A stretch of DNA of 45,662 nucleotides from a virus (taxonomy: Duplodnaviria > Caudoviricetes): the IMG/VR virus record IMGVR_UViG_3300032324_000593, positions 1 to 45,662 of that record. One strand, written 5' to 3'. This document shows, one piece after another, positions 4,087 to 39,501 of the stretch (position 1 is its first letter; the number at the start of each line of letters is the position of its first letter). The position numbers were made by a program, and so were the translations under genes. A model generated the notes under the pieces. It was not told where the DNA came from, made no database searches, and was given only the letters and a program-made list of their open reading frames with translations.

Positions 4087-4500
4087 ATGGACAGAATAGA
4101 AATGTTATTAGAAAAATTAGAGAACAGAATCCCTAATTCATTAGCAAAAAAAATTGATAAACTTGATGATTTTGAAGAAAAATTAATAGTTGCTCAAAAT
4201 GATTTCACTAACGAACCAACGGATGAAAACAAAGACAATCTTAAAGAAGTTACAGATTTTGTAAACGATTTAAAAAACGATGTGATTTCTAATTTAGAAG
4301 ATTTAGTTGCTAAAAAAGTAGCTAAAGAAAAGGAAGTTGAAGCACCAGCACCAGCACCAGCATCAGCACCAACAAGTGAAGTAAAACCAGACGAAAAACC
4401 AAAAGAAGAAAAAAAAGGTGTAAGTATTTTTGGAATTGCTTTAGGAGTTGTTTTATTGGTAGGTACTGCTGGAGCATACAATTACTTTTCAAAAAAATAA
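4087..4500 (+). CDS. membrane protein: coiled coil, Pro/Ala linker, C-terminal TM helix
   Basis: APAPAP linker; IFGIALGVVLLVGTAGAY followed by KK. Confidence 0.75.
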   Translation: MDRIEMLLEKLENRIPNSLAKKIDKLDDFEEKLIVAQNDFTNEPTDENKDNLKEVTDFVNDLKNDVISNLEDLVAKKVAKEKEVEAPAPAPASAPTSEVKPDEKPKEEKKGVSIFGIALGVVLLVGTAGAYNYFSKK

Positions 4501-4526
4501 GTAATTAACAATTAAATATAAAAGTC

Positions 4527-4652
4527 ATGAATACAAAAACAAAAGCATTATTAGTAACTGGATTAGCAATAATAGGTGCAGTATCAGTTTATTTGTTTCT
4601 TATGAAACCAAAAAAGAATGATGATGGATTTTACAATATGTACGGATATTAA
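4527..4652 (+). CDS. 41-aa membrane microprotein (not in the ORF track)
   Basis: MNTKTKALLVTGLAIIGAVSVYLFLMKPKKNDDGFYNMYGY; fills the intergenic gap. Confidence 0.7.
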   Translation: MNTKTKALLVTGLAIIGAVSVYLFLMKPKKNDDGFYNMYGY

Positions 4653-4657
4653 TATTC

Positions 4658-4951
4658 ATGGCATATAAAATTTTACCATATAGCTTTAGAAAGGCAAAGG
4701 AGTTAGGGGTGGTTATAAAACCATCCACTAACTTTTTAAAAAAAATTGATGTCTATAAAGATGGTAAAAAGATTGCTTCAATAGGTGCAAGAGGTATGAA
4801 TGATTACCCTACGTATTTAGAAAAAGAAAAAAAAGGTAGTTTTCCAAAAGGTTACGCAAACAAAAGAAGAAAATTATATAAAGATAGGCATGAAAAAGAT
4901 AGAAACGTAAGAGGTTCTAACGGATATTATGCTGATAAAATTTTGTGGTAA
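4658..4951 (+). CDS. basic 97-aa protein resembling the DUF5754/Tlr6F-like family of giant viruses and polinton-like viruses
   Basis: KKIDVYKDGKKIASIGARGMNDY...RRKLYKDRH...GYYADKILW pattern, recognised from memory. Confidence 0.5.
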   Translation: MAYKILPYSFRKAKELGVVIKPSTNFLKKIDVYKDGKKIASIGARGMNDYPTYLEKEKKGSFPKGYANKRRKLYKDRHEKDRNVRGSNGYYADKILW

Positions 4952-5688
4952 TGGCAGATTATAGAAAAGCGTTATTTTCAATTAAATTACAAGTAGGAGG
5001 TTTAAAATTCAACTTTTTGGGTGGAGATATACCATGCAATTTAGGTATTGAAACCGACCCAGATGAATTGAAAAAATTAGATTTTCTAAAAGATGCACCA
5101 GTTAAGCCACAATTTAAGTTTAATCAAAACAAAGGAATTAACTGGAGTGTTTTTAAAACGTATTCTGATGAATATATTTATGAACCTTCTTGTGAAAACT
5201 TTAAAGAAATGCCAGATGAAATATGGAACACAATATTTAAAAAACAATATTGGGATAGTATAAATGGCGACAAAATAAAAAATCAAGGAGTTGCAAATAT
5301 TATTTCTTACATTGCTTTAAAGAGTGAAGGTGTAATTTTATCATCTGCATTACTTGAAAGTAAATTAAAAGAATTTGGTTTTGTTCCAAAGGTAAAAGTA
5401 AATCAAAATATATTTACGATTAATATAAGTAAATTGGATGATGAATATATTGATTTTATAAATGATTTAGATGCAAAAGGTAAAAGTCCAGAATTGTTTG
5501 ATAAATTATTTTTTGATTATGAAAGAGATATTATACCATTAGACAAAAGAAAAGAAGATGATATTTTAATAAATAAGTTTTATTTACTTAACAAACCTTA
5601 TGCGAGTTCAATTAAAGAAAAAACTTTATTTTTAGGTGGTGTAATAGGTGTAATTGGTGGATTAGTAATTTTAAGTAGGTTAGAATGA
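4951..5688 (+). CDS. GH108-like lysozyme paralogue, probably inactive, with C-terminal TM
   Basis: Aligns by eye with 6705..7409 (MADY, NKGI.W..FK, F..MPD..W..I.K...WD.I.GD.I.NQ..AN, FY.LNKPYA). LQVGG replaces KAEGG. Start at ATG 4951 (TAATG overlap). Confidence 0.65.
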   Translation: MADYRKALFSIKLQVGGLKFNFLGGDIPCNLGIETDPDELKKLDFLKDAPVKPQFKFNQNKGINWSVFKTYSDEYIYEPSCENFKEMPDEIWNTIFKKQYWDSINGDKIKNQGVANIISYIALKSEGVILSSALLESKLKEFGFVPKVKVNQNIFTINISKLDDEYIDFINDLDAKGKSPELFDKLFFDYERDIIPLDKRKEDDILINKFYLLNKPYASSIKEKTLFLGGVIGVIGGLVILSRLE

Positions 5689-6254
5689 TAAATTTAGGAG
5701 GAATTAACAATAATAATATTTATAGTGGTATAAGTGTTGGGGAAATTTTCCCAGAAATTAAACCAGTAGCGGAATTATATGATTATAACCATCCAGCACG
5801 ACCAATTTTTTTAGAACTGACAAAAAAATACCCACCATTACAAGGCGAAAAATCTATAATAAGTTTATTTAACACAGACAAATTAGATGGCAATACTTGT
5901 GTTAGAGCAGATGAAAGTATAAAAGAAATATCTAAAGAAATTGAAGATTTACAAAAAATTACACCAGCTTTAACTGGATATGAATTAGCTACATCAAAAG
6001 ATTTAAATGTAAATAAACTTGAAATATTAAGAAGAATCCTTTTGCAATATAAAATGGCTTTTAATAAAGGAGAATGTACAGATACTTTAGAAAAAATGAA
6101 AGCAGAAGCAAATGCTAAAATTTTAACTAAAGAATCGGCAAAATCTGAAAAACAAGTTTTAGAAAAAAATTATAAAGAGCAATATTTATATATTGGTATA
6201 GGTTCAGTAATATTATTAGTAGGATTATACATTGTAACACGAAGCAAAAAATGA
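5685..6254 (+). CDS. helical protein with C-terminal TM (paralogue family with 6251 and 23290)
   Basis: QVLEKNYKEQYLYIGIGSVILLVGLYIVTR tail; two Cys. Confidence 0.75.
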   Translation: MINLGGINNNNIYSGISVGEIFPEIKPVAELYDYNHPARPIFLELTKKYPPLQGEKSIISLFNTDKLDGNTCVRADESIKEISKEIEDLQKITPALTGYELATSKDLNVNKLEILRRILLQYKMAFNKGECTDTLEKMKAEANAKILTKESAKSEKQVLEKNYKEQYLYIGIGSVILLVGLYIVTRSKK

Positions 6255-6703
6255 GAGGTGTAAATACAAATACAAGAACCAGTAGGTCTGTAAATACAAA
6301 TCTTACTAATAGAATTACTGCACCAGTTGTAGATGGAGTAAGAAAAACTTATGCACAAGAAGATGTAGAAAAATTAGCTTTAAACGATGGTTATGTTTCA
6401 GCTTGTATAAAAATTGACGAAGAAATTAAAAGTATTGCTAAACAAATAAGCGAATCAACAAAAGAAGAAATAGAACTAAATAAACTTTTGTTTGAAAAAA
6501 AACGAGTATTTAATTCTATTTTATGTGCGGATAGTTTAGAACAAAAAAAATCAGTTGAAAACGCAAAAATAATTTCAGAAGAATCTATTAAAGCAGAACA
6601 ACAAGTTTTAGAAAAAAATAAAAAAGAACAATATTTATATATTGGTTTTGGAGCAGTAGTTTTGTTAATTGCATTATTTGTTGTTACACGAAATAAAAAT
6701 TAA
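6251..6703 (+). CDS. helical protein with C-terminal TM (paralogue of 5685)
   Basis: QVLEKNKKEQYLYIGFGAVVLLIALFVVTR tail. Confidence 0.75.
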   Translation: MRGVNTNTRTSRSVNTNLTNRITAPVVDGVRKTYAQEDVEKLALNDGYVSACIKIDEEIKSIAKQISESTKEEIELNKLLFEKKRVFNSILCADSLEQKKSVENAKIISEESIKAEQQVLEKNKKEQYLYIGFGAVVLLIALFVVTRNKN

Positions 6704-6704
6704 A

Positions 6705-7409
6705 ATGGCAGATTATAAAAACATAGTAGCATTTATCAAAAAAGCAGAAGGAGGTTTGTCGTCAGCAACAACTGATACTGCAAGTAGGAATCCATCTCCT
6801 TGTGGTAATGGTAAAAATGGTAAGCCATATCATACAAATAAAGGAATACAATGGATAACATTCAAAGGTTTAGCAAGTCAAGGCGGTTATACTGCAAGTT
6901 GCTCAAACTTTTTAAAAATGCCAGATGATGTTTGGTATAAAGTTTATAAAACTGGATTTTGGGATAAAATTCAAGGAGATAGAATAAGAAATCAAGCAAT
7001 TGCAAATTCATTTGTTGAAATGACTTGGGGAAGTGGTTTAGGATGTAGTGATTTTTCCAAATGTAAGTCTGGAACTATACCATTTTTAAATCAGTTTTTT
7101 AAAAAATATTATAATGAAAATTTATCATCTGTTAGTCAGTACGTAGATTTTGTTAATGAATTAGATAAAAAAGGGCAATCATCTGAATTATTTGAAAATT
7201 TAAACGAATTTAGGGCAAACAAATATGTTGCATTAAATCAGCCAAAAAATTTAAAAGGATGGTTAAGTAGGTTAAATGGTTTTTATGTATTAAACAAACC
7301 TTATGCTTTATCAACAACAGAAAAAAAAAATATAACTAAAGGTTTAGGTGGTGTAATAGCAATAATATTAATAACGTATTTATACAAACAATATGGAAAT
7401 TCAAAATAG
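6705..7409 (+). CDS. GH108-family lysozyme with C-terminal TM anchor (putative virion-associated muramidase)
   Basis: N-terminal FIKKAEGG (catalytic Glu motif), TNKGIQW.T, GWLSRL, TM tail; probable start ATG 6705. Confidence 0.75.
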   Translation: MADYKNIVAFIKKAEGGLSSATTDTASRNPSPCGNGKNGKPYHTNKGIQWITFKGLASQGGYTASCSNFLKMPDDVWYKVYKTGFWDKIQGDRIRNQAIANSFVEMTWGSGLGCSDFSKCKSGTIPFLNQFFKKYYNENLSSVSQYVDFVNELDKKGQSSELFENLNEFRANKYVALNQPKNLKGWLSRLNGFYVLNKPYALSTTEKKNITKGLGGVIAIILITYLYKQYGNSK

Positions 7410-7548
7410 TACAGAAGCACAAAAAGAACAAAAATCAAAAATTCATACACACTTATCAACTACATTTGTAATAGTTGGTATAATTTCTTTTACTTTAGGT
7501 GCAATAGTAAATTATTATACAATTAAACGTTTAAACGGAATAAAATAA
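7393..7548 (+). CDS. 51-aa membrane microprotein (not in the ORF track)
   Basis: MEIQNSTEAQKEQKSKIHTHLSTTFVIVGIISFTLGAIVNYYTIKRLNGIK; TAATG overlap with the next gene. Confidence 0.65.
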   Translation: MEIQNSTEAQKEQKSKIHTHLSTTFVIVGIISFTLGAIVNYYTIKRLNGIK

Positions 7549-7955
7549 TGCAAATAACTGGAAAAATAACAGATAGTAATGGTGTTCCTTTAGGTAGAAC
7601 AACTATTTTAAAAACAACTGGAAAAAATGCTAACAAAGTTGGTGTTTTCTCAAATGATGATGGGTCATTTGATTATGAAAACGATTCAATTGCTCCAGAA
7701 GATAATTTTGAAATAAAATATTTAGGTTTTAAATCTCAATTTTTTAAAGCATCACAACTAAAAAACAAAACTATAAAATTAGAACAACAAACAGATGAAA
7801 TCGAACCAGTTTTAATTGTAGGTCAAGTAAAAAAGAAAAAACAAGAAATAACAAACAACTTCAAACTGCATTTTAACAAACACAAAATGCTTTACGCTGG
7901 AATCGGTGGATTATTAGGATTAGTATTAATTTTTACATCAATTAAAAAAAGATAA
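7548..7955 (+). CDS. CarboxypepD_reg-like (SusC N-terminal-type) beta domain with C-terminal TM
   Basis: ITGKITDSNGVPL...GVFSNDDGSF...IKYLGFK pattern typical of Bacteroidota proteins. Confidence 0.7.
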   Translation: MQITGKITDSNGVPLGRTTILKTTGKNANKVGVFSNDDGSFDYENDSIAPEDNFEIKYLGFKSQFFKASQLKNKTIKLEQQTDEIEPVLIVGQVKKKKQEITNNFKLHFNKHKMLYAGIGGLLGLVLIFTSIKKR

Positions 7956-7956
7956 T

Positions 7957-8562
7957 ATGACAAACGAATTTGATGATTGGAGAAGTAAGTACGATACTAT
8001 GAGTAGTAATGAGCAAGTGGAATATTATAATGAAATAGAAGAATTATATCCAGAACAAGCACATTACAACTATGAAAACGTAAAAATCGTATTAGAATTA
8101 GGTAAAAAAAACGCAGATGTTTTAGAGTTTGGAACTTGGAAAGCAGATTTATGTGAAACCGCTTTAAAAGAATTTGAAATTAATAGTTGGACTGGAATAG
8201 AAATATGCAAGTCAGCTATTGATAAAACAAGATGTAAAGACCCAAAATTCAAATATATTTTTCCAGAAAAATTTGATTGGTTCAATGATAACAATAGACC
8301 AAAATGTGATATTGTAATTGCTACTCATTTTATAGAGCATTTAAGCAACGAACATTTTAACGCATTAGCAAAATATTGTGAAGGAGTAGAATATATTTAC
8401 TTTGAAGCACCATTAAGCGATAATGGAGAAGATTGGAGTGGTTATTTTGGTACACATAAATTATTTTATGGTTGGAATCAAGTAGTCGAAGTTATGGCTC
8501 AAAATAATTTTGAAGTAGTGCATAACTTAAATCAAGGTAAAATATTTAAAACAATTAAATAA
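7957..8562 (+). CDS. class I SAM-dependent methyltransferase-like protein
   Basis: VLEFGTWKADL, WTGIEI, DIVIATHFIEHL. Confidence 0.65.
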   Translation: MTNEFDDWRSKYDTMSSNEQVEYYNEIEELYPEQAHYNYENVKIVLELGKKNADVLEFGTWKADLCETALKEFEINSWTGIEICKSAIDKTRCKDPKFKYIFPEKFDWFNDNNRPKCDIVIATHFIEHLSNEHFNALAKYCEGVEYIYFEAPLSDNGEDWSGYFGTHKLFYGWNQVVEVMAQNNFEVVHNLNQGKIFKTIK

Positions 8563-8569
8563 AAATAAT

Positions 8570-8908
8570 ATGGAAACACAAGTAGATGTGTCAGCACCAG
8601 CACAAGTAGTTGCACCAGCACCAGCACCAGCAGTTGCAGTTGCACCAGCAGTCGCACCAGCAACTCCACAAATGGAAAGTGGTGGATTTATGGAAAGCGT
8701 AACAAAACCAAAAATGAAATTTGTAGATTTATTTATAGCTGGATTATTAATTGCTACACAAATTTATCTTATTGTAGATACAAGAAGAAGAATCAAAAAA
8801 GAAAATGAAATGCCTTCAAAAGAAGAATTTGAAAACTTTGTTGATGATTTAAATGAAGTAAAATACAATGTTGAAAAAGCATTAGGAAAAAAATATGTTA
8901 AAACCTAA
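8570..8908 (+). CDS. membrane protein with Ala/Pro-rich N-terminus
   Basis: APAV repeats, MESGG motif, central TM helix. Confidence 0.7.
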   Translation: METQVDVSAPAQVVAPAPAPAVAVAPAVAPATPQMESGGFMESVTKPKMKFVDLFIAGLLIATQIYLIVDTRRRIKKENEMPSKEEFENFVDDLNEVKYNVEKALGKKYVKT

Positions 8909-8918
8909 TAAATAAGTT

Positions 8919-9494
8919 ATGGCAGTAAAAACTAAATCAGAAATGCAAAATATGACTAACGACCAGTTAGTCGCATACTTAAATGGTTTAAGTAAAAGCG
9001 ATTTCAATAGTTTTATTGATGCTGATACTAAAGTTCGTTATTTTATTTATCTGTATGGAGATGGAATAGCAAAAGCAATTAAAGGAACAAAATTGTATTT
9101 TTCTGGAATAACCGCTTTAAAAATTACTGAATCTGGTTATGGTAGAAATATTCCATTAAATTCTTTTAACTTTGGTGGTGTAAAATACAATCCAAATATT
9201 CATACCGATTTTGTACTTGCTGACACTTCTGAAATAGTTAAAGGGAAAAGAATATTTATAAAGGCAAAATTTGCAAAATTTAAAGATGCCGAAGATGGAA
9301 TTAGAAAAAATATAGCAGTTTTATTAGGAGATAGGTATAAAAATGCTCGTTTAAATGCAAGAAGTCCAGAAGAACAAATTAAACTAATTGCACAAGCTGG
9401 TTACACAACAACACCATCAACAAGTTATTTAAAATTAATGCAAGGAAACATTGATAGAGTAAGAAAAAAAACTGGATTTGGTAGAATAGAATAG
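8919..9494 (+). CDS. GH73 glucosaminidase/muramidase (FlgJ-like)
   Basis: ITESGYG, NFGGVK, FAKF, AGYTT motifs. Confidence 0.8.
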   Translation: MAVKTKSEMQNMTNDQLVAYLNGLSKSDFNSFIDADTKVRYFIYLYGDGIAKAIKGTKLYFSGITALKITESGYGRNIPLNSFNFGGVKYNPNIHTDFVLADTSEIVKGKRIFIKAKFAKFKDAEDGIRKNIAVLLGDRYKNARLNARSPEEQIKLIAQAGYTTTPSTSYLKLMQGNIDRVRKKTGFGRIE

Positions 9495-9496
9495 TT

Positions 9497-9652
9497 ATGA
9501 CAAAAACATTAAAATATACATTAGTAGGATTAGGTTTGGCTGGAGTGTCATACTTATCATTTTTAACATGGACAAGATTTTTAGAAGCTAAATGGGATGG
9601 TACAAATGTAACATTAACAGAAGCAGAAGATATAATTAAAAACGTAAAATAA
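9497..9652 (+). CDS. 51-aa N-anchored membrane microprotein (not in the ORF track)
   Basis: MTKTLKYTLVGLGLAGVSYLSFLTWTRFLEAKWDGTNVTLTEAEDIIKNVK. Confidence 0.65.
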   Translation: MTKTLKYTLVGLGLAGVSYLSFLTWTRFLEAKWDGTNVTLTEAEDIIKNVK

Positions 9653-9653
9653 A

Positions 9654-9821
9654 ATGAAAAATAAAAAATTACTATACGGATTATTAGGTATTGGAGTAAT
9701 AGCTGGTTTTTATTTTTACAATAAAAATAAAATGCCAAAAGATTTAGGAAAAAGAAAAAATTTATTAGCAATAGAACCAGAACCAAAAGGACAAATCATG
9801 TGTATAAAAGCACCATGTTAA
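9654..9821 (+). CDS. 55-aa N-anchored membrane microprotein ending CIKAPC (not in the ORF track)
   Basis: MKNKKLLYGLLGIGVIAGFYFYNKNK...QIMCIKAPC. Confidence 0.65.
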   Translation: MKNKKLLYGLLGIGVIAGFYFYNKNKMPKDLGKRKNLLAIEPEPKGQIMCIKAPC

Positions 9822-9848
9822 ATTAAAAACAATTTAAAAAAAAAACAA

Positions 9849-10109
9849 ATGACAACAAAAGATGTATTATTAGTATTAGGTGGAGTAGCAATAGGTTATT
9901 ACGCTTTTAAAATGAATTTCATGAAAAAAACTGCAATGGTAGTTGAAGAAGTGGTATCAGAGGTAAAAGATGCAGTTGTAGATACTGCAAAATTAACTAA
10001 ATGTGAAGCCGAATGGACTGAAAAAATTGGTTCAACTACAAGATTTTCTTCTCCAGAAGCAATGGAAAAATCGAAAAGCGATTATTTAAAAGATTGCTTA
10101 ACAAAATAA
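9849..10109 (+). CDS. N-anchored membrane protein with a Cys pair
   Basis: VLLVLGGVAIGYYAF TM; KCEAEW...KDCL. Confidence 0.7.
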   Translation: MTTKDVLLVLGGVAIGYYAFKMNFMKKTAMVVEEVVSEVKDAVVDTAKLTKCEAEWTEKIGSTTRFSSPEAMEKSKSDYLKDCLTK

Positions 10110-10770: not shown

Positions 10771-11214
10771 ATGAACCAAGAAACTAACAACATAACTAAA
10801 GTCTTATCTGAATTAAACAAAACAATTCATGTGATAGGTGCTGACAAACTTATTGAAATACTAAAAATTTCAAGAGAAAACGATACTGATTTAGATGATG
10901 ATACAATTATCAAATCCAGAATGATAATTCAAATTGTATGTGATGAATTTAAAATAAAATATGATGATTTCTTTTCTCGAATGAGAAAAAACAATCGTAG
11001 ATATGCAATTGGAATTACTACTACACTACTAAAAGATATTCTAAAACTTGATGTTGCAGACATTTCTTTTTTGCTAAAAAAACCAAACAATTTAATTTCA
11101 ATTTATTCTAATGAAGTTATGGAGTTAAATCCAAAACACAAATCTGATATTGTAATTATAGAAAAAATTGAAAACATAAACACCAAACTTAAAAACATAA
11201 ATTATGGAAATTAA
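10771..11214 (+). CDS. helical protein resembling the DnaA C-terminal (domain IV) HTH
   Basis: IIQIVCDEFKIKYDDFFSRMRK...RYAI...DISFLLKK pattern. Confidence 0.45.
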   Translation: MNQETNNITKVLSELNKTIHVIGADKLIEILKISRENDTDLDDDTIIKSRMIIQIVCDEFKIKYDDFFSRMRKNNRRYAIGITTTLLKDILKLDVADISFLLKKPNNLISIYSNEVMELNPKHKSDIVIIEKIENINTKLKNINYGN

Positions 11215-12232
11215 TCAAGAACCAGAAACAACTATTGAAGCACAAATTGTAGATACCGATTTTAGTCCTTTAGATGCACCAGTAAAGAAAAGAGCATATA
11301 CTAACCATGTTTTAGCAAGTGATGATGCAGTTTTAGAAGATTTAGCAGAACCTACTTTTCAAACACCATCTTTTTCAGATTTTGACCCAGAGCAAGAAAA
11401 AGGAAGTAAAGAACCAGATAGACCATTTAACGAAAGTTATTCTGAATTAGATAACAAAGATAAAACAATGGGTGCAGAAATGATGGCAGATATGACATTA
11501 GATTTGTACGAGAAAGGTTGTGGTTTTTTAGGAAAGTTACCAGAAATTAACGAAAGAAAATTAGACACTTTAATTGCAGAAGGAGAAATTGACCCAAACA
11601 TTGAAATACCAACGGAATCTGGAAACTTATTAGTTAAAGAATTTGCACAAGAATATAATTCAAGTATTAAAGATGCTTTTGAAGTTTCAGATGAATTTAA
11701 AGATAAAGTAAGACCTCCATTAATTAGAGTACTTAAAAAACGTGGAATCGGTATGACCGATGAACAAACATTATTGTATCTTTTCGGAACAGATATAGCA
11801 ACAAAAGGCACACAAGCATTTATGTTAAGAAAAACTGCTAATAGTATTGTAGATTCATTAAAAGAAAACACACAAGTATTGCGTGAAACACTAATACCAA
11901 GACCAGCACAAGCACCAGTACAAAAAGAAGCTGAACCTATAAAATATTATGAAGAATCGGAAGAAGAAAAAGTTGTAGTACGACGTAGAAAACCAAAAAC
12001 AAATTTAGAAGAACAAATTGAATTTTTTGAACCAGAAGAAGCTGGAAGCGTTTTTAACAATTTAAAAGATTCTGGTGGATTCTCACAAGAGTATAATGAA
12101 GCAGATAATATGCCTAAATTTGGAGATAGAGAAATTTTATCTCAATTGGAAAAATTAAGTGAAGAACCAACTAAACCAGTAAGAAAATCAAATACTGGAG
12201 CAAAAAGAGGTCGTAAACCTAAAGCTAAATAA
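11204..12232 (+). CDS. acidic 342-aa hypothetical protein upstream of the packaging ATPase
   Basis: Long ORF with normal codon usage; basic tail KRGRKPK. Confidence 0.7.
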   Translation: MEINQEPETTIEAQIVDTDFSPLDAPVKKRAYTNHVLASDDAVLEDLAEPTFQTPSFSDFDPEQEKGSKEPDRPFNESYSELDNKDKTMGAEMMADMTLDLYEKGCGFLGKLPEINERKLDTLIAEGEIDPNIEIPTESGNLLVKEFAQEYNSSIKDAFEVSDEFKDKVRPPLIRVLKKRGIGMTDEQTLLYLFGTDIATKGTQAFMLRKTANSIVDSLKENTQVLRETLIPRPAQAPVQKEAEPIKYYEESEEEKVVVRRRKPKTNLEEQIEFFEPEEAGSVFNNLKDSGGFSQEYNEADNMPKFGDREILSQLEKLSEEPTKPVRKSNTGAKRGRKPKAK

Positions 12233-12356: not shown

Positions 12357-13178
12357 ATGGAAGAAAGAGAACCAAAATTAGGAGTTGCAGTTGGAAGAAA
12401 AGGTTGTGGTAAAACATATACTACCAGAAAAATGATGCAACAATATGTTGTGGGAAATCCCTTAAAAGGAATTGCTCCCAGAAGGGTATTAATTTTAGAT
12501 GTAAACGATGAATTTGATGATATTAGAGCATTAAGTATAAATGATATTATGCGTTTTTCAGTTCATCCAAAAATAGAAATGAGAAGAATTAGACCTTTTC
12601 ATGATAGCGGAAAGCGTATGACAATTAATGATATACAAGAAACGCTTTTTAAGATTTTAAATGATTTTAGAGGAGGATTATTACTTATAGAAGATGTTAA
12701 TAGATATATTTCAGATTATTTACCGAATGACCTTGTGGGTGCTATATGTACTAACAGACATACCGATACCGACATTATCTTACACTTTCAATCGGTTGGT
12801 AGAGTTTCTCCGAAAATCTGGCAAAACTTAAACTGGATTAGATTCCACAAAAATACGGATAGTGTCGATAAGCACAGAACAAAATTTGACGACAAATATG
12901 AAATGCTTAAATTGGTTGAGAATTACGTTAATAGTGAATATCATACTTACAACAATCAAAGGTATTTTGCTTACGTAGATATTGATGATGAAAAAATTAA
13001 AGGTGTAGATAGAAAGAAATTTGAAAATGTTGTAGATTTGTACATATCGGAAAATTATAAAAAAATGATTTCTCCAATGTTACAGACAAGAGATATTGGA
13101 AAAGGAACAAAAGTTTATACACCAGAATCAGCAGTAAAAGAACAAAAGAAAAGAATTTTAAGCTACTATTTAGATTAA
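12357..13178 (+). CDS. FtsK/HerA-superfamily genome-packaging ATPase (A32/P9-like)
   Basis: Walker A GRKGCGKT at the N-terminus, VLILD strand, Walker B LLLIED, Arg-finger NRH followed by IILHFQ; 273 aa with no nuclease domain. Confidence 0.75.
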   Translation: MEEREPKLGVAVGRKGCGKTYTTRKMMQQYVVGNPLKGIAPRRVLILDVNDEFDDIRALSINDIMRFSVHPKIEMRRIRPFHDSGKRMTINDIQETLFKILNDFRGGLLLIEDVNRYISDYLPNDLVGAICTNRHTDTDIILHFQSVGRVSPKIWQNLNWIRFHKNTDSVDKHRTKFDDKYEMLKLVENYVNSEYHTYNNQRYFAYVDIDDEKIKGVDRKKFENVVDLYISENYKKMISPMLQTRDIGKGTKVYTPESAVKEQKKRILSYYLD

Positions 13179-30155: not shown

Positions 30156-30171
30156 AACAAAATAAAAAATT

Positions 30172-30555: not shown

Positions 30556-31374
30556 ATGAAAACTATTTTTTACAATTCCTCTCTACCCAGAAGTGGTAGC
30601 ACTTTAATTCAAAACATTATTGCACAAAATCCAGATTTTTATACTACACCAACAAGTGGTTTAGTTGATTTAATTTTGGCATCAAAAAACAATTACAATC
30701 ATTCCCAATCATTTATTGCACAAGACCAAAAGCAAATGGAAAATGCGTTTTTAACATATTGCAAAGCTGGTATGCAAGGATATTTTGAAGGACTAACCGA
30801 CAAACCATTTGTAGTTGATAAAAGTCGTGAATGGAGTATAAATTATGGTTTGTTAAATATGTTTTTTCCAAATCCAAAAATTATTTGTATGGTAAGGGAT
30901 ATAAGATGTATTTATTCTTCAATGGAAAAAAACTTTAGAAAAAATCCACATAAAGAAAATCATATACAAAACGCACCACAATTAGTAGGTACTACTCTAA
31001 ACAAAAGACTTGATTTATGGGCAAGTGGAGTGCCAGTAGGAGTTGCAATAGATAGGTTACAAGATGTTATTCAACAAGGTTTGGATAAAAATTTATTATT
31101 TATTCGTTATGAAGATTTGATGGATAATCCAGAAAATGAAATGAAGCGTATTTACGAGTATTTTAATGTACCTTACTATGATAACCACGATTTTGAAAAC
31201 ATAACGCAACACACACAAGAAAACGATACCATTCATGGTATATATGGCGACCACACTTTAAGAACAAAATTTGAACGTAAACCAGATGATTATTTAGATG
31301 TTTTAGGATATGAACTATCAATGAACATTAGAAACCACTATAAATGGTTTTACGATTATTTCGGATATGTATAA
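30556..31374 (+). CDS. PAPS-dependent sulfotransferase
   Basis: 5'-PSB loop SSLPRSGSTL, KIICMVRD...SS, IRYEDL. Confidence 0.85.
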   Translation: MKTIFYNSSLPRSGSTLIQNIIAQNPDFYTTPTSGLVDLILASKNNYNHSQSFIAQDQKQMENAFLTYCKAGMQGYFEGLTDKPFVVDKSREWSINYGLLNMFFPNPKIICMVRDIRCIYSSMEKNFRKNPHKENHIQNAPQLVGTTLNKRLDLWASGVPVGVAIDRLQDVIQQGLDKNLLFIRYEDLMDNPENEMKRIYEYFNVPYYDNHDFENITQHTQENDTIHGIYGDHTLRTKFERKPDDYLDVLGYELSMNIRNHYKWFYDYFGYV

Positions 31375-31385
31375 ACAATAGGGTA

Positions 31386-33503
31386 CTAAATATGTACCCT
31401 ATTTTTTTTGTTTATTCCTATCTTAATAACCATATCGTGTACTGATATTCCTTTTTGACACTCAAATTGCTTATCGTAACCATCCCAAATAGGACACCAA
31501 TTCCAGTTTCCTTTGTCAAATTTAAAGTTTTTGTTATTCCAGCAACCATGACAAACAGATGTATTTGTCAATCTGGTACAATCACTTTGAAATTCATGGT
31601 CGGCAGTAGTGAAATTAGCAATCATGTAAACGTGTTTGTTTAATGCCCAAGCTAACCAGCTTAAACCACTACTTAAACCAATAAAATATTCTGAAAAGTG
31701 AATAATTTGCATAGTAGTTTCTAAAGACAAATCTTTTGGTTCTAAAACTTTTTCTAAATTATATTTTGTATTTATTGATACATTAACAACTTCAAAACCA
31801 TTATCAATTAGATAATAAACTAACTTTTGCCAATTCCATAAATCCCATTCTTTACAACCAGCAGTTGAATCTGGAGCAATACAAACATAAGGTTTTTGAG
31901 TATTGCTCAATTCCATTTTTGGTGTAAAATTCAATTTAGGTTTTAATTCACTAAAACTTAACCCTAAAATATTTGTAGCAGTTTGTTGTAATGGTATTGT
32001 ATTAGGTAAAACTGGCTCTTTATTACTATCATAAAACCATCCTAAATCAAATTTTGCTTGTAAATTATTAATTACTTCGGCTGGTTCAATAAAAAATATA
32101 TTTGGATATTGGTCTTTAAATAAGAAGTTTTTAAAAGTTGAAACAAACAAAACGCAATCATGTTTTTTCTGAAATTCATCACAATAAGGCAACCATGCCA
32201 AAGTGTCGCCTAATGAACTACTTTCAAAAGAAATCATAACTCGCTTACCTTTTAAATCAAACATTTGGTCAAAAATAACCTCACTTGTTTTTTGTTTGTC
32301 AGCTTTAATTTCAGTAACTTTTATATGGTATTCTGTATAGTATTTTCTGTTTAATTTTACCCACGAATTACATTTAATGGTATCTTCATAAAACAAACCA
32401 TTTTCATCAAAAAATTCAACTTTAAAAGTGCTTGTAGATTTTCCATTTATTTCAATAAAAGCACCATCTACAAAATGATGATTAATACTTACTTTTCCTT
32501 CTTTTGGTTGTTTCATAATTTTTGATTTTAAAATTGATTTATACAAATCTTCATGGTCGTTTTTGAAATGAAATGTATCATTATTACTATTTATTCTTGC
32601 TTTATATTTTAATGGACTATCTAAAGGTTTTATAATTCCATCATACATACCACAATATTGCGGTAAATTATTAGCATAAATGGTTAATTCATGGCTTATT
32701 GCTTCACGTAACACAATAGGATTACACTCTTTTTTACTTGGAAATAAAAATATGTCAGATAAAATCATAAAATCCTCAATATCTTCTCTTTCTCCCCAAA
32801 CTTTTACATTTTTTGGAATTTTTTTCATTAATGGTTTCCAATAATCAGCAAAGTTTTCAGCTTGATTACCAACTATATGAAAATCATAATCTGGATATTG
32901 TTCAGCAATTTCTAAAACTTTTGCTTGATTTTTATTATCACACCATAATCCAACGGATAAAACATTTGTTTTTTTTGTGTCAAATTTTAGTTTATCAAGT
33001 GCATTTTTGTGTTTAATTTCATTAAATGGTATTATTTCTAAAGGGTACATGATTACTTTCTTTTCCGTTTGAATATCTTTAAAAGTTTCAAGATGATATG
33101 GAGTACAAAAAGCAAAAGCATCTGGAATAAATATTTTATTTTTAGGATTAAAAGAAACATTATGACACGTTTCAACAATACGATAGTTACGATTATTTGC
33201 ATAAAGTTTTTCCATTAAATTTAAATCAAAACCCTCTGCTTCGTGGTCAATATGTACAATTTGTACACTTTTTTCTTTAATAATATCTATTAGCTTAAAT
33301 TTATTATCATCCAATGTAAATAAATTTTCTTTGCCTATTAAATTAATGATTTGATTTCTTTGTACAACATATTGGTCAGACAAACATTCATACTCAACAA
33401 GAAATATTTTGTTATAAGTATCTATAAGATTTTCAATTCTTTTTAAAAGAAATTGTGGCATACCACCAGTAGATAAGTGTGGTGCTAAAAATAATATGTT
33501 CAT
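31386..33503 (-). CDS. fusion of a GT4-like glycosyltransferase and an autotransporter O-heptosyltransferase (Aah/TibC-like) domain
   Basis: N-terminal HLSTGGMPQ and FLFPSKKECNPIVLREA; C-terminal SLGDTLAWLPY, GLSSGLSWLAW and four Cys CHGC...WCP...FEC. Confidence 0.75.
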   Translation of the reverse strand: MNILFLAPHLSTGGMPQFLLKRIENLIDTYNKIFLVEYECLSDQYVVQRNQIINLIGKENLFTLDDNKFKLIDIIKEKSVQIVHIDHEAEGFDLNLMEKLYANNRNYRIVETCHNVSFNPKNKIFIPDAFAFCTPYHLETFKDIQTEKKVIMYPLEIIPFNEIKHKNALDKLKFDTKKTNVLSVGLWCDNKNQAKVLEIAEQYPDYDFHIVGNQAENFADYWKPLMKKIPKNVKVWGEREDIEDFMILSDIFLFPSKKECNPIVLREAISHELTIYANNLPQYCGMYDGIIKPLDSPLKYKARINSNNDTFHFKNDHEDLYKSILKSKIMKQPKEGKVSINHHFVDGAFIEINGKSTSTFKVEFFDENGLFYEDTIKCNSWVKLNRKYYTEYHIKVTEIKADKQKTSEVIFDQMFDLKGKRVMISFESSSLGDTLAWLPYCDEFQKKHDCVLFVSTFKNFLFKDQYPNIFFIEPAEVINNLQAKFDLGWFYDSNKEPVLPNTIPLQQTATNILGLSFSELKPKLNFTPKMELSNTQKPYVCIAPDSTAGCKEWDLWNWQKLVYYLIDNGFEVVNVSINTKYNLEKVLEPKDLSLETTMQIIHFSEYFIGLSSGLSWLAWALNKHVYMIANFTTADHEFQSDCTRLTNTSVCHGCWNNKNFKFDKGNWNWCPIWDGYDKQFECQKGISVHDMVIKIGINKKNRVHI

Positions 33504-33516
33504 AAAAATATTTTTT

Positions 33517-33535
33517 GGTTACTGGTACAAATATA
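33517..33535 (-). promoter_or_regulatory. conserved promoter element TATATTTGTACCAGTAACC (copy 1 of 3)
   Basis: Same element at 43303 and 45589; contains TAnnTTTG; upstream of the 33503 start. Confidence 0.75.
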
Positions 33536-33547
33536 ATATTTTTTTTG

Positions 33548-33555
33548 TATATTTG
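33548..33555 (+). promoter_or_regulatory. divergent -7 promoter box (TATATTTG)
   Basis: About 29 nt upstream of ATG 33584. Confidence 0.6.
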
Positions 33556-33583
33556 AAAAAAAAAGAAACTTAAATTTATAACT

Positions 33584-34051
33584 ATGATTTACAACTTTAT
33601 TGGGCAACCACACGCTGGTAAAACCACACTTGCTAAACATCTAAAAAATGTTTTAGAAACTAATTATAATCCAATGCTTTTCAAACATTGTATTTTAGTT
33701 GATGGAGATAATTTGAGAGATATTCTTAAAAACAAAGACTTTTCGGAACAAGGAAGAAGAAACAATATCAATCAAGCATATAATATTGCTAAATTTTTAG
33801 ATAAAGATTCATGTTTTGATGTTGTAATTGCAGTTGTTTCGCCTTTTTTAGATTTAAGAGAAAAATTAAAAAAAGAAGCAGATGTAATTGAAATTTATGT
33901 ACATACAACAGATATTAGAGGTCGAGAAGCATATCATGTACCTTATTTTGAAGCACCTATGCGTAATTTTATTGATGTTGATACAACAAATATTGATGAA
34001 TTAACAACTATGAATGAACTACTAAACAATATCGAAAATTATGGAAAATAA
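33584..34051 (+). CDS. cysC: adenylyl-sulfate (APS) kinase
   Basis: P-loop GQPHAGKTT, LVDGDNLR, DFSEQGRRNNI, VVSPF, FEAP. Confidence 0.85.
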   Translation: MIYNFIGQPHAGKTTLAKHLKNVLETNYNPMLFKHCILVDGDNLRDILKNKDFSEQGRRNNINQAYNIAKFLDKDSCFDVVIAVVSPFLDLREKLKKEADVIEIYVHTTDIRGREAYHVPYFEAPMRNFIDVDTTNIDELTTMNELLNNIENYGK

Positions 34052-34349
34052 AGAATTACAAAATACTGCAAGTGTTATTCAAAAATTTATAATAGAAGGA
34101 AGAAAATTATTTTTTAAAGAAAATCAACCTATGTTTGTTGAAATTCGTTTTAATAATAACGATGTAGATGGAACAAGGAAATGGAGAGTAATTTTTAGTG
34201 GAAAAGAATTTCATACTGCTGAAATTTTTATTGAAATTCCATGCAAAACTGAAAGTAAATTTTATGAAGAATTAGGAGGTTATAAACATCATATTGTATG
34301 TGATGCTAATATAATTTATTTTGAAAATAACATTTGTAGAATAAAATAA
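34041..34349 (+). CDS. hypothetical protein
   Basis: IRFN...WRV...KHHIVC; overlapping start. Confidence 0.6.
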   Translation: MENKELQNTASVIQKFIIEGRKLFFKENQPMFVEIRFNNNDVDGTRKWRVIFSGKEFHTAEIFIEIPCKTESKFYEELGGYKHHIVCDANIIYFENNICRIK

Positions 34350-34350
34350 T

Positions 34351-34755
34351 ATGGAAAATTGGAATAAAAAAATTCACGTTAAATCTTCATTACCTAAAAA
34401 AGATGGTCAATATGCAATGTTTATTGGAAGATGGCAACCATTACATGATGGTCATAAAGCTATGTTTCAAAAAGCAATGCAACAAGGAAAAAACGTACTT
34501 ATTTGTGTCAGAGATGGAGAAGTAAACGAAAAAAACCCTTTTACTTCTGAACAAGTTAAAGAAAATATAGAAACTAATTACGCTTCATTTTTCAAACAAG
34601 GCGAAGTAAAAGTTATGGTAATTCCAGATATTTGTAGTGTAGAATTTGGTCGTGGAGTAGGTTATGATATTATTGAACATATACCACCAACTGAAATTGC
34701 AGAAATTTCGGCTACAAAAATTCGAGAAGAAATGAAAAAAAACGGAGAATTGTAA
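34351..34755 (+). CDS. HIGH-superfamily (cytidylyltransferase-like) nucleotidyltransferase
   Basis: FIGRWQPLHDGH, NPF, ISATKIR. Confidence 0.85.
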   Translation: MENWNKKIHVKSSLPKKDGQYAMFIGRWQPLHDGHKAMFQKAMQQGKNVLICVRDGEVNEKNPFTSEQVKENIETNYASFFKQGEVKVMVIPDICSVEFGRGVGYDIIEHIPPTEIAEISATKIREEMKKNGEL

Positions 34756-34970
34756 TGGAAGTAACAAAAAAACGACATATTGCAAAAACAATAAGTTATA
34801 GATTAGTTTCAACCGCAATTGGTTTTGGTGTAGTTTGGGCAGTTAGTGGCTCAATAACTATTGGAAGTGCATTTGGATTTGCTGAATTAGTTTACAAACC
34901 AATACAATATTATATTCACGAAAGAATATGGTACAGATACATTAAATACGGACTTAAAAATAAAAAATAA
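34755..34970 (+). CDS. DUF2061-like small membrane protein
   Basis: RHIAKTISYR...YYIHERIW. Confidence 0.8.
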   Translation: MEVTKKRHIAKTISYRLVSTAIGFGVVWAVSGSITIGSAFGFAELVYKPIQYYIHERIWYRYIKYGLKNKK

Positions 34971-35839
34971 TGAATGTAATTTTTCAAATAGATGGTGGAT
35001 TAGGAAAGTCAATTATGGCAACCGCAGTTTTAAAAGCAATAAAAAAGAAATACTCAAAAGCAAATATAATTGTTGTTAGTTCGTACCCAGATGTTTTTAT
35101 AAGTAATCCAAACGTAAATAGAGTTATAACACATGAACAATTAACTGGTATTTATGAAAAGTGGATAATGCTAAAAGAAGCAAAAGTTTTTGTTTCAGAC
35201 CCTTATCAAAGTTCAGATTTTATAACTGAAAGCAAACATTTAATTGAAATTTGGTGTGATATGTATGGTTTAAAATATGATGGAGAAAAACCAGAATTAT
35301 TTATTTCTAAATCTGAAAAACAATATTTTGAACCATTTTACAGATTAGACAAACCAATTTTAGCAATACAACCTAATGGTGGAGCATTAAATCAACCATT
35401 AAAATATAGTTGGACAAGAGATATTCCACAACCAGCTATGCAAGATATAGTTAATCATTTTGCTAACGATTATGCAATATTGCACATAAAACGTGATGAC
35501 CAAATAATATATGAAAATACAATGGCTTGTTTGGATAACTTTAGAAGTATAGCTATTATGTTATCTATGTCTGAAAAAAGATTATTAATTGATTCTTCGG
35601 CTATGCACATTGCAACTGCTTTAGGTTTACCATCAGTTGTTTGTTGGGTAGGCACAAATCCAAAAGTGTTTGGGTATGATATGCACACAAATATTGAAGC
35701 AAACGCACCAGATTCCGAGCCAAATCTTAATCATCCGAATTATAGTAAATATTTGTTATTTCAAGATATTAGCACAATACCTTATACAGATTTAAATAAT
35801 GTTTTTGATAAAAATTTAATAATAAATGCCTTAAAATAA
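34970..35839 (+). CDS. GT9-like (heptosyltransferase-fold) glycosyltransferase
   Basis: GGLGKSIMAT, NPNV, IDSSAMHIATALGLPSVVCW. Confidence 0.75.
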   Translation: MNVIFQIDGGLGKSIMATAVLKAIKKKYSKANIIVVSSYPDVFISNPNVNRVITHEQLTGIYEKWIMLKEAKVFVSDPYQSSDFITESKHLIEIWCDMYGLKYDGEKPELFISKSEKQYFEPFYRLDKPILAIQPNGGALNQPLKYSWTRDIPQPAMQDIVNHFANDYAILHIKRDDQIIYENTMACLDNFRSIAIMLSMSEKRLLIDSSAMHIATALGLPSVVCWVGTNPKVFGYDMHTNIEANAPDSEPNLNHPNYSKYLLFQDISTIPYTDLNNVFDKNLIINALK

Positions 35840-36372: not shown

Positions 36373-36708
36373 ATGAGTTATATTGCAGTAGCTGGATTGG
36401 GAGTTTCAGTAATAACAAGTATTGCTGGTGGAAACGCTGCGAAAAAACAAGCAGAACAAACCAGACAACAAGAAAGGCAATTAAGGTTAGCTGAAATGTC
36501 TTTAAATGAAAAAATGGCATCCGAAAAATTAAGAGTGGAAGCAGAAATTTCTAGAACTAATATTTTAGCGAGTTCTTTATTGGCTTACAGAACAACTTTA
36601 CAAACTGAAAGTACTCAAAGGTTAAAAGATACTTGGCTATATCAAACTGGTACTGGAATTGGTTTAGGAGTGTTTTATGGATTGTATTTAATGACTTCAA
36701 AAGAATAA
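36373..36708 (+). CDS. small virion/membrane protein
   Basis: Gly/Ala-rich N-terminus, coiled coil, C-terminal hydrophobic helix. Confidence 0.65.
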   Translation: MSYIAVAGLGVSVITSIAGGNAAKKQAEQTRQQERQLRLAEMSLNEKMASEKLRVEAEISRTNILASSLLAYRTTLQTESTQRLKDTWLYQTGTGIGLGVFYGLYLMTSKE

Positions 36709-36710
36709 TT

Positions 36711-37058
36711 ATGGCTGGAGATTTAACAAGTGCTGGTGTAGGAGCAGTAAGTCAAGTAGCGACTACTTTAATTACTTCTGCGTTTGCAAAAGCAGATGCA
36801 AAAAAGCAAAGGGAGTTAATTGATGAATTAGGTAGATTAGATTTAGCACAACAAAAAGAATTAGAAATTCGTTTACAAGATGTAAAAGGAGAATTAGCTA
36901 AACAAGAAATCATTTATAAATATATTGCAGTACAAAAAAATGATGAAGCATTAGCAAAAATTAAATCAAAAAGATATACTTCTTACATTGTTTTAGGTGG
37001 TGCAGTAGTTGGATTAACATTAGTAATAATTTTATTAGCAAAAAAGAAAAATGGATAG
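36711..37058 (+). CDS. coiled-coil protein with C-terminal TM
   Basis: Probable start ATG 36711 (MAGDLTS); TM YIVLGGAVVGLTLVIILL. Confidence 0.7.
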   Translation: MAGDLTSAGVGAVSQVATTLITSAFAKADAKKQRELIDELGRLDLAQQKELEIRLQDVKGELAKQEIIYKYIAVQKNDEALAKIKSKRYTSYIVLGGAVVGLTLVIILLAKKKNG

Positions 37059-37398
37059 AGATACAAAATTTTTTATTGGCTCTTTAGGTGTAGCAATTGT
37101 TATTTTATTTCTTATTGGAAATAAGAACAAAAAAAGTACAAAAGATTTATTAAATGTAAAATATGCTGAACCTAAACAAGTAGAAGATACAGAAATTAAA
37201 GACAAAGAAAATGCAGTAATTGGTTTAAAAGCAATGCGTGAAGCAATGGATAGTAAAGAATCAAAAGCCGAGTTAGACAAACTAAACAATATAATTTTTA
37301 AAGATTATGGTGTTAAAATTATGCCTAATAAATCTACTGGATTACTTCGTGCAATGTCAAAAAAAGGAAAAGTTTTAGCAGAAGAAACAAAAGAATAA
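37051..37398 (+). CDS. N-anchored membrane protein
   Basis: TM FFIGSLGVAIVILFLIG. Confidence 0.7.
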   Translation: MDRDTKFFIGSLGVAIVILFLIGNKNKKSTKDLLNVKYAEPKQVEDTEIKDKENAVIGLKAMREAMDSKESKAELDKLNNIIFKDYGVKIMPNKSTGLLRAMSKKGKVLAEETKE

Positions 37399-37401
37399 GT
37401 T

Positions 37402-37863
37402 ATGCCAGTAATTATACCAACTATAACATTTTACGCAAATAATGTGGTTTCGGTTGTATCTTTAGATTCAACTCCATATTTTGTTATTCAAAATAGTATG
37501 GGTAGTTTTGTTTATGGTCTTACAGAATTATACTTAAAAGCAAATTCAAATTCTCAAATATTGCAATCTTATAAATTTAATAGATATGATGTAAATGGAA
37601 CGTTAGAATCTTTTTCACAAATTCCTATAATTGACCCTTATCAATTTCAATCATCTTTATTTGTTGAAATGCAAAAAGAAAATGTATATTTAGATGGAAG
37701 AACAAATTTAGCTTTTACAATTTTACCAAACGAAACTTTATTTTTAATTCTTTATAATGACCAAATTGCTAATAGAGATTTTGTTCCAGCAACAGATTTC
37801 TTTAATGATGATTTTTTTAACAAACAATATAACGTATTAAATGACTACCAAGAACTACTATAA
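37402..37863 (+). CDS. paralogue of the capsid candidate (minor capsid protein)
   Basis: QILQSYKFNRYDVNG...PIIDPYQFQ...LDGRT...ILPNETLFLILY aligns with QVLETLSVNTRDANG...PTIDPYQQQ...IDGFT...VLANATLKLYFY of 15465. Confidence 0.7.
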   Translation: MPVIIPTITFYANNVVSVVSLDSTPYFVIQNSMGSFVYGLTELYLKANSNSQILQSYKFNRYDVNGTLESFSQIPIIDPYQFQSSLFVEMQKENVYLDGRTNLAFTILPNETLFLILYNDQIANRDFVPATDFFNDDFFNKQYNVLNDYQELL

Positions 37864-38314
37864 ACATTCATCACTATTAAAGATAAAGTTAGAAAATAAA
37901 AAAAATACAATATTAAAACTAAAGACTGGAGATTTAGTTAAAACAAAAGCAGAAGATTATCCATTAATATATCATTATGGAATAGTAGATAAGACCAAAG
38001 ATGGTTTTTTTATTTTGCATAATCATCCAGATAAAATAAATTCAAAAGGTGGCTCTATTGTAAAAGAATCTTTTGAAAAATGGATTAAAGGAAAAGAAAT
38101 TGTTTCGGTAGAATCAACAAACCTAAAAACAGATGATATTGATGAATTATATCAAAAACTAAAAGTTTATAAATATGATTTTATTAATTTTAATTGTGAG
38201 CATTTTGTTAATTTTGCTAAAAATAATGATTATGTAAGCCCACAAGTTTTGAGATGGACTTCATTAATTGCTATTGGAATTATTACGTTTTATTTATTAA
38301 GAAAAAAAATATGA
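37841..38314 (+). CDS. LRAT-like permuted NlpC/P60 enzyme with C-terminal TM
   Basis: GDLV...HYGIV (His), YDFINFNCEHFV (catalytic Cys, NCEHF signature). Confidence 0.8.
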   Translation: MTTKNYYKHSSLLKIKLENKKNTILKLKTGDLVKTKAEDYPLIYHYGIVDKTKDGFFILHNHPDKINSKGGSIVKESFEKWIKGKEIVSVESTNLKTDDIDELYQKLKVYKYDFINFNCEHFVNFAKNNDYVSPQVLRWTSLIAIGIITFYLLRKKI

Positions 38315-39501
38315 AAGCATTAAAAAGTCAAATAAATTTAAGAATCGTCAATAATACATCTTTTAATCAGTTTGTTGATATTTTAAGTGTTATCCCTAAT
38401 CCGTTATCAGCTAATGAATCTAATGGATTGTATAATTTCAATATGTCAAGTGTTTCTTTTTTTGGAATAAATAACGTTAGTATTACATATTATTTAACAT
38501 CAAATCCTACACCAGTAACATCTACTGCAAGTGTAACAACACAAAACATTCAAGGAGTAGTAACTGCTTTAAACACTTTAGGAATTGGAATTTTTAATTT
38601 TTCTGGAACGACAATTTATGTTTCTTCAAGCACTTACGTTTATTCTAATATAACTATTGCTGGAAGCTCTATTTTAGGTACTACTGGTATTGACCCATCT
38701 GGTATTGTTTTAGATAGTTTTGGAAATGTATATACTTGTAATCAAGGAAGTGATGATGTAAGCAAAATTACACCATCTGGAGTATCTACAATTTTAGCAT
38801 CTACTGGTGGAGTTGATTGTAAGGGAATTACAATTGATACTTCTAATAATTTATATGTTTGTAATGCTGTTACTGGTAATGTTTCAAAAATAACACCATT
38901 AGGAGTTGCTACAATTTTTGCATCAACTGGTGGAGTTCCATCAGCAATTACAATTGATAGTTTAGGTAATTTGTATGTTTCTGATTCTGGAACAAATAAT
39001 GTTGTAAAAATAACACCATTAGGAGTTTCTACAACTTTAGGAGCAACTGGAAACACACCAAATGCAATAACTATTGATAGTTCTGGAAATATTTATACTG
39101 CAAATTCTGTTTCAAACAATGTTTCAAAAATTACACCATTAGGAGTTTCTACAATTTTAGGAACAACTGGCTCTAATCCAAAAGGTATAACTATTGATAG
39201 TTCTGGAAATATTTATACTGCAAATTATAATTCAAATAATGTTTCAAAAATAACACAATTAGGAGTTTCTACAATTTTAGGAACAACTGGCACTAATCCA
39301 TTTGGAATAACTATTGATAGTTCTGGAAATATTTATACTGCAAATGATGGTTCAGATAATGTGAGTAAAATTACACCATTAGGAGTTTCTACCATTGTAA
39401 ATACAACTGGAGCAAATCCAGTAGCAATTACAATTAATGCTTTAGGAAATATTTATACTGCTAATGCTGGTTCAGATAATGTTTCTTTAATAGTACAATA
39501 A
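38311..39501 (+). CDS. spike candidate: capsid-like N-terminal strands plus a 7-repeat NHL/Vgb-like beta-propeller
   Basis: Start ATG 38311 (ATGA overlap); seven ~40-aa repeats P.GITIDSSGNIYTAN..SNNVSKITP.G. Confidence 0.75.
   Translation: MKALKSQINLRIVNNTSFNQFVDILSVIPNPLSANESNGLYNFNMSSVSFFGINNVSITYYLTSNPTPVTSTASVTTQNIQGVVTALNTLGIGIFNFSGTTIYVSSSTYVYSNITIAGSSILGTTGIDPSGIVLDSFGNVYTCNQGSDDVSKITPSGVSTILASTGGVDCKGITIDTSNNLYVCNAVTGNVSKITPLGVATIFASTGGVPSAITIDSLGNLYVSDSGTNNVVKITPLGVSTTLGATGNTPNAITIDSSGNIYTANSVSNNVSKITPLGVSTILGTTGSNPKGITIDSSGNIYTANYNSNNVSKITQLGVSTILGTTGTNPFGITIDSSGNIYTANDGSDNVSKITPLGVSTIVNTTGANPVAITINALGNIYTANAGSDNVSLIVQ
38668..39498 (+). repeat. 120-bp-period coding tandem repeat (7 copies)
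   Basis: actattgatagttctggaaatatttatactgcaaat recurs near 39070, 39190 and 39310. Confidence 0.85.

Follow-up and report, generated by a model that had tools for sequence, protein, structure and literature searches.

We analysed a 45,662-base stretch of DNA (hereafter the window) that makes up the whole of IMG/VR virus record IMGVR_UViG_3300032324_000593, and found that it probably makes up the half of a large freshwater double-stranded DNA virus that encodes particle construction; the virus is likely one of Bacteroidota. From the observed gene content, homology, synteny and integration, and from predicted folds and membrane helices, we consider it probable that the particle is tailless, with a shell of protein 15465 over an internal membrane that is filled with DNA by a B204/P9-type ATPase, 12357 (genes are named by their start positions). 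The lineage, likely a widespread one, has free members that are large (100-132 kb) and a branch of smaller ones (32-54 kb) that integrates at tRNA genes of Crocinitomicaceae and Parvicellaceae. The window has a G+C content of about 27%. Eighty genes were drawn from its open reading frame (ORF) lists, 65 of them beginning within 4087-39501, and all 80 were scanned against Pfam and PHROGs profiles. As the record is the window itself, the absence of tailed-phage genes had to be checked in relatives, and we fetched G001 (101 kb), G002 (102 kb), G003 (100 kb), G004, G005 and contig C9 of G006 (132 kb). The central features are as follows.

12357..13178 (+): FtsK/HerA-type ATPase, predicted genome-packaging motor, 273 amino acids (aa); AlphaFold2 model, Foldseek, alignment
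15465..16163 (+): predicted major capsid protein, 232 aa, with an N-terminal helix and disordered arm, a single jelly-roll-type core (about 51-205) and a C-terminal arm; predicted structure
37402..37863 (+): shorter, faster-evolving capsid paralogue, candidate vertex or minor capsid protein; profile, tree

The AlphaFold model of 12357 (predicted local distance difference test 89.6) contains a single P-loop domain and a helical C-terminal part, and leaves no room for a nuclease domain. Foldseek placed B204 of STIV2/STIV, solved viral packaging ATPases, at the top (E 1.4e-8, template modelling score 0.52/0.68), followed by Zot (6e-6) and then RecA-type folds; no terminase was among the matches listed, and a type IV secretion chain of R388 lay lower down (E 8e-5). 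The search for relatives returned 717 at E<=0.001. Residues G13, G18, K19, D48, E52, E112, D113, R134, H135 and Q145 were invariant in 87/87 distinct family members, and we take the invariant arginine and glutamine to be the FtsK/HerA finger and sensor. Walker B read hhhhED, not hhhhDE, in all 87 (residues 112-113; window 12690-12695). By alignment, model and Foldseek, 12357 falls within the FtsK/HerA superfamily and among the A32/P9/B204-type packaging ATPases, and its length, model and top match bear out an earlier note on this DNA, made from the sequence alone, which had described an A32/P9-like ATPase lacking a nuclease domain. In the ATPase phylogeny that the note had proposed, the ATPases of integrated elements formed one branch (99/99); a tree that included the ATPases of PRD1, PM2 and P23-77 gave no placement for the family. 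The family profile scored no better than E 0.015 against the ATPase of P23-77 in a 10-protein test; that match kept both Walker motifs (A and B) and the arginine in register.

The same note had picked out 15465 as a beta-rich capsid candidate with a paralogue and had proposed that its predicted structure be compared with known jelly-roll capsids. Structure prediction for 15465 returned one beta-sandwich domain with a jelly-roll-type core; in the fold searches no known icosahedral capsid scored above background, and nothing tied the protein to Singelaviria or Varidnaviria. Relatives of 67-94% identity were found at 37 IMG/VR loci on contigs of up to 102 kb, and the capsid family comprised 544 clusters at 50% identity. 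The paralogue was confirmed: 37402, which sits 22 kb from 15465, matched the 15465 profile at E 3e-17 (next match E 0.1), and its orthologues in G001, G002, G003, G004 and G006 formed one branch (Shimodaira-Hasegawa-like approximate likelihood ratio test 99, quick tree). No 37402-type paralogue was found by profile in four integrated elements, and Pfam and PHROGs revealed no other candidate in the window for a double jelly-roll capsid. Some members carry extra capsid paralogues (L044 of G002 at 6650-7174, 14648-15112 and 17225-18418; L028:9276-10702; L009:6784-7437; L013:7724-8305). One of these in G002, of 397 aa with two repeats, appears by its sequence to be a natural tandem fusion of the jelly-roll domain, a caveat on the double-jelly-roll negative. 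An aromatic-x-Asn-small-x-Gly motif was seen twice in the capsid arm (15519-15590) and also in 4527 (4629-4646) and 16259 (16511-16528), and a variant in the arm of 3/4 provirus capsids.

Gene order around the ATPase and capsid genes was kept among the free relatives. The capsid gene was present in 64 of 80 viral ATPase loci, the remaining 16 ending at most 2.5 kb from the ATPase. That these are tailed phages whose terminase, portal and HK97 capsid have diverged past recognition or were left unassembled, with 15465 as a cement or decoration protein, is highly improbable. The sole terminase match in the window is that of the ATPase itself to the family 'terminase large subunit' (phrog_2666, E 5e-6); this weak match weighs against a tailless particle. 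It falls on the C-terminal 40% of that profile, and terminase ATPase domains are N-terminal. The ATPase fold is B204-like, contrary to a tailed phage, and the 80 window genes gave no portal, HK97 capsid, sheath or tape-measure match, in agreement with the absences read earlier from the sequence. Beyond the window, where the note had proposed looking for the terminase large subunit and portal, PHROGs was run on 46/147 ORFs of G001, 58/147 of G002 and 87/173 of G003, chiefly those of at least 90-100 aa without a window homologue, and on 56/57 G006 C9 ORFs of at least 200 aa; Pfam was run on 70 G001 ORFs. At the sensitivity of hidden Markov models, the scanned ORFs of these four 100-132-kb relatives gave no terminase, portal, HK97 capsid, sheath or tape-measure match, and the Caudoviricetes hallmarks (terminase large subunit with nuclease, HK97 capsid, portal) were thus found neither there nor in the window. 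Terminase_6N was matched in 0/5 relatives (G001-G005, records perhaps incomplete), with controls positive in 5/14. Tail-class matches in the relatives were to fibre repeats, spikes and lytic enzyme domains of hub families, along with two weak single matches to a major tail protein (E 4e-4) and a baseplate wedge (E 2e-6). The 32-54-kb elements bounded by att-like repeats contain the whole module, and in the Fluviicola one, apart from the weak ATPase match and a CHAP-type enzyme domain, Pfam and PHROGs matched neither head nor tail families.

Two hydropathy rules were applied to the 65 genes of 4087-39501; each called membrane helices in 32 of them, with a union of 38 that becomes 36 once two evident false positives (fibre 25578 and propeller 38254) are dropped; five further genes have a terminal hydrophobic stretch, judged by eye only. 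Residue-shuffled proteins gave a mean of 3.9 calls and a maximum of 8 (200 shuffles). The excess is real, and the figure of about 40 single-pass proteins given previously was slightly generous. In G001 membrane proteins numbered 42/84 in the structural part versus 4/63 elsewhere, and in G003 27/70 versus 8/103. Genes 13349, 13595, 14363 and 34755 probably encode lysis or accessory rather than virion proteins. From this gene content we infer an internal lipid membrane; the large, lipid-containing tailless lineage proposed in the note is otherwise supported by the packaging ATPase, the predicted capsid fold and the missing tailed-phage hallmarks. The same excess could point to an enveloped or pleomorphic particle with the membrane outermost, 15465 as an inner lattice or matrix, and single-pass proteins and fibres facing outward, which we regard as unlikely. 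Weighing against a shell over an internal membrane are membrane proteins that far exceed the total annotated features of PRD1 (31), PM2 (23) and P23-77 (37), a genome size that spans 32 to 132 kb, the position of Zot as second family in the ATPase structure search, and the lack of an icosahedral capsid match for 15465. The conserved jelly-roll protein and its distinct paralogue, together with a motor resembling B204, suit a shell with a packaging vertex, not an enveloped particle, and the holin-endolysin-spanin cassette indicates lysis, not extrusion.

Twenty loci in GTDB genomes matched the ATPase alignment. Eight of these, at 34-37% identity, lay in Crocinitomicaceae, Parvicellaceae or Flavobacteriales records and in one titled Glaciecola. 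The latter (G008/L092, titled Glaciecola amylolytica) has a malate dehydrogenase 96% identical to that of Fluviicola and was drawn within Fluviicola's family, and its title looks wrong. The capsid was matched in 5/5 tested host genomes (E 1e-30 to 1e-41), and in 11/301 genomes of Fluviicola's family and 10/401 of its order, with the centre genome counted and sampling confined to these groups. In each of three genomes (G029 C1, G235 C1, G010 C1 and C2) the capsid gene was matched at two separate places, which lie megabases apart or on distinct chromosomal contigs. By profile, the ATPase, 11204, the capsid, zincin 19837 and GH108 were detected in 4/4 integrated elements, 10771, 21480 and 23632 in 3/4, and 16647, 17281 and 24228 in 2/4. 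The elements largely share the window's gene order, have housekeeping genes on their flanks, and each terminates at a tRNA gene, next to a recombinase of the serine or tyrosine type; like their ATPases, their capsids form one branch. In the 33.6-kb element of Fluviicola chungangensis MAH-3 the tRNA end is repeated at the far side (15 bp), and the two elements of G010 (31.9 kb and 53.8 kb) have tRNA-end repeats of 44 bp and 46 bp. The 37.9-kb element of G009 has a 13-bp tRNA-end repeat that alone is not significant (E 0.19), and that of G008 is ambiguous, with a 17-bp repeat from the tRNA's 5' part. In the serine-recombinase elements (L175:6268-7908; L180:5954-7597) the integrase frame runs into a tRNA-Arg gene on the opposite strand, so integration may alter the integrase C-terminus. 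Window genes have A at -12 and -11 in 71% (background about 42%, estimated) and Shine-Dalgarno-like words in 5/80, a pattern typical of Bacteroidota. Together with the integrated elements this supports the Bacteroidota host suggested before, indirectly in the case of the window, whose own host is likely of this phylum. Between 48 and 60% of sampled words were present in sequencing runs labelled freshwater or aquatic from three studies, the possible source study not counted.

No recognised fibre, separate capsid paralogue or replication gene was found in the integrated elements examined; therefore they could represent temperate viruses of small size, satellites that depend on a helper, or proviruses in decay. 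Three of them carry peptide-modification gene clusters as cargo (L176:12015-19509; L181:10843-19083; L183:12-2457), two of the three with C39 ABC exporter, HlyD and outer-membrane efflux genes. It is very unlikely that the lineage is a non-viral plasmid or integrative transfer element, its FtsK/HerA ATPase and membrane proteins forming a DNA-transfer apparatus with 15465 as structural subunit. The cargo (peptide-export ABC transporter clusters and defence-like genes), the genes lacking from the integrated elements and the R388 chain among the lower ATPase matches count for such an apparatus and against a virus. No relaxase or conjugation family was found among the scanned proteins, the large members encode a lysis cassette and fibres as well as replication and recombination genes of phage type, and the nearest ATPase structure is a viral packaging motor, not a transfer apparatus.

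The other features of the window are listed below.

4087..10109 (+): membrane-anchored proteins with GH108 hydrolases 4945 and 6669 and glucosaminidase 8919, candidate entry enzymes; Pfam, PHROGs, hydropathy
10771..12232 (+): conserved gene pair (147 aa and 342 aa) upstream of the ATPase, candidates for packaging accessories; synteny
13349..15074 (+): likely lysis cassette with two 2-helix holin-like proteins, M15 endolysin and Rz-like spanin; Pfam, PHROGs, hydropathy
15293..24945 (+): small proteins with terminal membrane helices, zincin 19837 (HEFSH), peptidoglycan-binding-like 20634 and 22793, LEA_2-like 23632; Pfam, PHROGs, hydropathy
24961..30477 (+): fibre genes, among them 25578, a fibre of 1525 aa with Gly-rich repeats; Collagen E 3e-64 (Pfam), PHROG fibre families
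30556..35839 (.): sulfation/glycosylation block with sulfotransferase, glycosyltransferases, APS kinase and nucleotidyltransferase; Pfam matches
36373..39501 (+): three membrane proteins, the capsid paralogue, PPPDE/LRAT-like peptidase 37841 and NHL beta-propeller 38254, candidate vertex/spike block; Pfam, hydropathy, profile

Pfam and PHROGs thus recovered the wall hydrolases, peptidoglycan binders and fibres noticed earlier (two GH108, glucosaminidase, M15, the fibre, and weak peptidoglycan-binding matches in 20634 and 22793). Genes 10771 and 11204 keep their order in the free relatives, and the 36373-39501 block is kept in G001, G003 and G006. M15 peptidase 13927 (Peptidase_M15_3, E 3e-20) adjoins the holin-like genes 13349 and 13595, with two predicted helices each, and the spanin (phrog_739, E 3e-6). 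Decoration of the fibre or particle is a possible role of the sulfation/glycosylation block.

In the probable mechanism, modelled on PRD1 and P23-77, a vesicle made of membrane proteins and host lipid would be the surface on which 15465 assembles the shell, its arms binding neighbours and membrane, and many of the predicted single-pass proteins would be carried in the internal lipid membrane. The paralogue 37402, with the 36373-39501 block, propeller and fibre proteins, would build or occupy the vertices, and 12357 with 10771 and 11204 would pump DNA into the shell. At entry the membrane-anchored GH108 and glucosaminidase enzymes may open the wall, and lysis of the cell by holin, M15 endolysin and spanin would free progeny.

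Further observations concern neighbouring genes and genome ends. The morphogenesis region contains the PPPDE/LRAT-like papain-fold protein (37841-38314) and a PAP2 phosphatase (10116-10760; Pfam), both of families capable of acting on lipids or lipidated proteins. At 36-4011 the window encodes an ArdA fusion together with a polyvalent-type protein of 960 aa in which aromatic-Ala-Gly-Gly-Gly linkers recur; relatives (L039:122-18619) have 1900-2600-aa versions with zeta-toxin and ART-PolyVal domains, plus a MoxR-like AAA gene. These proteins are possibly packaged, cleaved anti-defence cargo. No end repeats were found in G001-G005. G006 C9 (L061, L067) has inverted tandem 11-mer copies at both ends (1-90, 132250-132486) followed by G-rich tracts, its genes point inward from both ends and it looks wholly viral; G001 and G003 ends are likewise G-rich. 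It may be a nearly whole genome, but a related motif sits inside another assembly; the arrays may be terminal repeats, or else inverted iteron arrays belonging to a circular origin. The scanned ORFs of G001, G002, G003 and G006 gave no DNA polymerase match, and the scanned proteins of the relatives included no protein-primed polymerase or rolling-circle initiator. The large relatives carry an initiator (phrog_428), RecT and exonucleases, and G001 also at least seven DNA methyltransferases.

Among known viruses, Halopanivirales (Singelaviria, Helvetiavirae; P23-77, SH1, SNJ1) likewise have an FtsK/HerA ATPase near a single jelly-roll capsid gene and temperate members, and on the P23-77 map small membrane proteins and wall hydrolases follow the capsid gene, as here. 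STIV/STIV2 (Turriviridae) supply the nearest solved structure to 12357, B204, whereas the Walker B of the 12357 family is hhhhED; the host of STIV is archaeal and its capsid is of the double jelly-roll kind. Halopanivirales have two adjacent major single jelly-roll proteins (excerpt of PMC8812541), in contrast to the lineage here, where a single conserved capsid gene is accompanied by a shorter paralogue some way off; the capsid candidate had no sequence or fold match to P23-77 VP16/VP17 in the searches run, and P23-77 and simulovirids have 16-19 kb compared with 32-132 kb. PRD1/PR772 (Tectiviridae), PM2 (Corticoviridae), FLiP and phiCjT23 have double jelly-roll capsids and genomes below 20 kb, as do described prokaryotic double jelly-roll viruses generally in the same excerpt of PMC8812541, unlike the lineage here, and the 15465 model, with its single predicted domain, lacks the double jelly roll of Varidnaviria. 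SPV1 (Portogloboviridae) has no packaging ATPase (PMC8812541, in the portion available), whereas here one is linked to the capsid gene; SPV1 VP4 was not among the listed 15465 fold matches. The earlier note was right about the tailless, ATPase-packaged plan and had put it under Varidnaviria, but single vertical jelly-roll viruses now have their own realm, Singelaviria (excerpt of PMC12714852), defined by two single jelly-roll capsid proteins (excerpt of PMC8812541), a realm that may or may not take in the present lineage. The available part of PMC5894146 covers 10-17-kb double jelly-roll genomes; that of PMC13598248 places the eight small-genome realms, among which Varidnaviria and Duplodnaviria are not counted, under about 60 kb. 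The lineage had no match among 50,697 GenBank phages, and our literature searches, whose scope excluded supplements and subscription papers, found no paper on it.

We conclude that this is a real, large and unclassified version of the plan shared by tailless jelly-roll viruses, for which a host group is supported and a named strain is available. A bolder proposal, which we advance tentatively and hold to be rather doubtful, is a third independent recruitment of the jelly roll as shell of an ATPase-packaged, membrane-lined double-stranded DNA virus: a realm- or kingdom-level bacterial lineage, abundant in fresh water, that reached 130 kb with neither tail nor portal nor double jelly roll and counts inducible proviruses of cultured Bacteroidota among its members. 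The question of the particle can be put to the test in Fluviicola chungangensis MAH-3, whose module looks intact. A lineage of tailless single jelly-roll viruses with genomes of 100-132 kb, if borne out, would add a major unclassified branch to the bacterial virosphere, one overlooked by marker sets based on terminase or double jelly-roll capsids.
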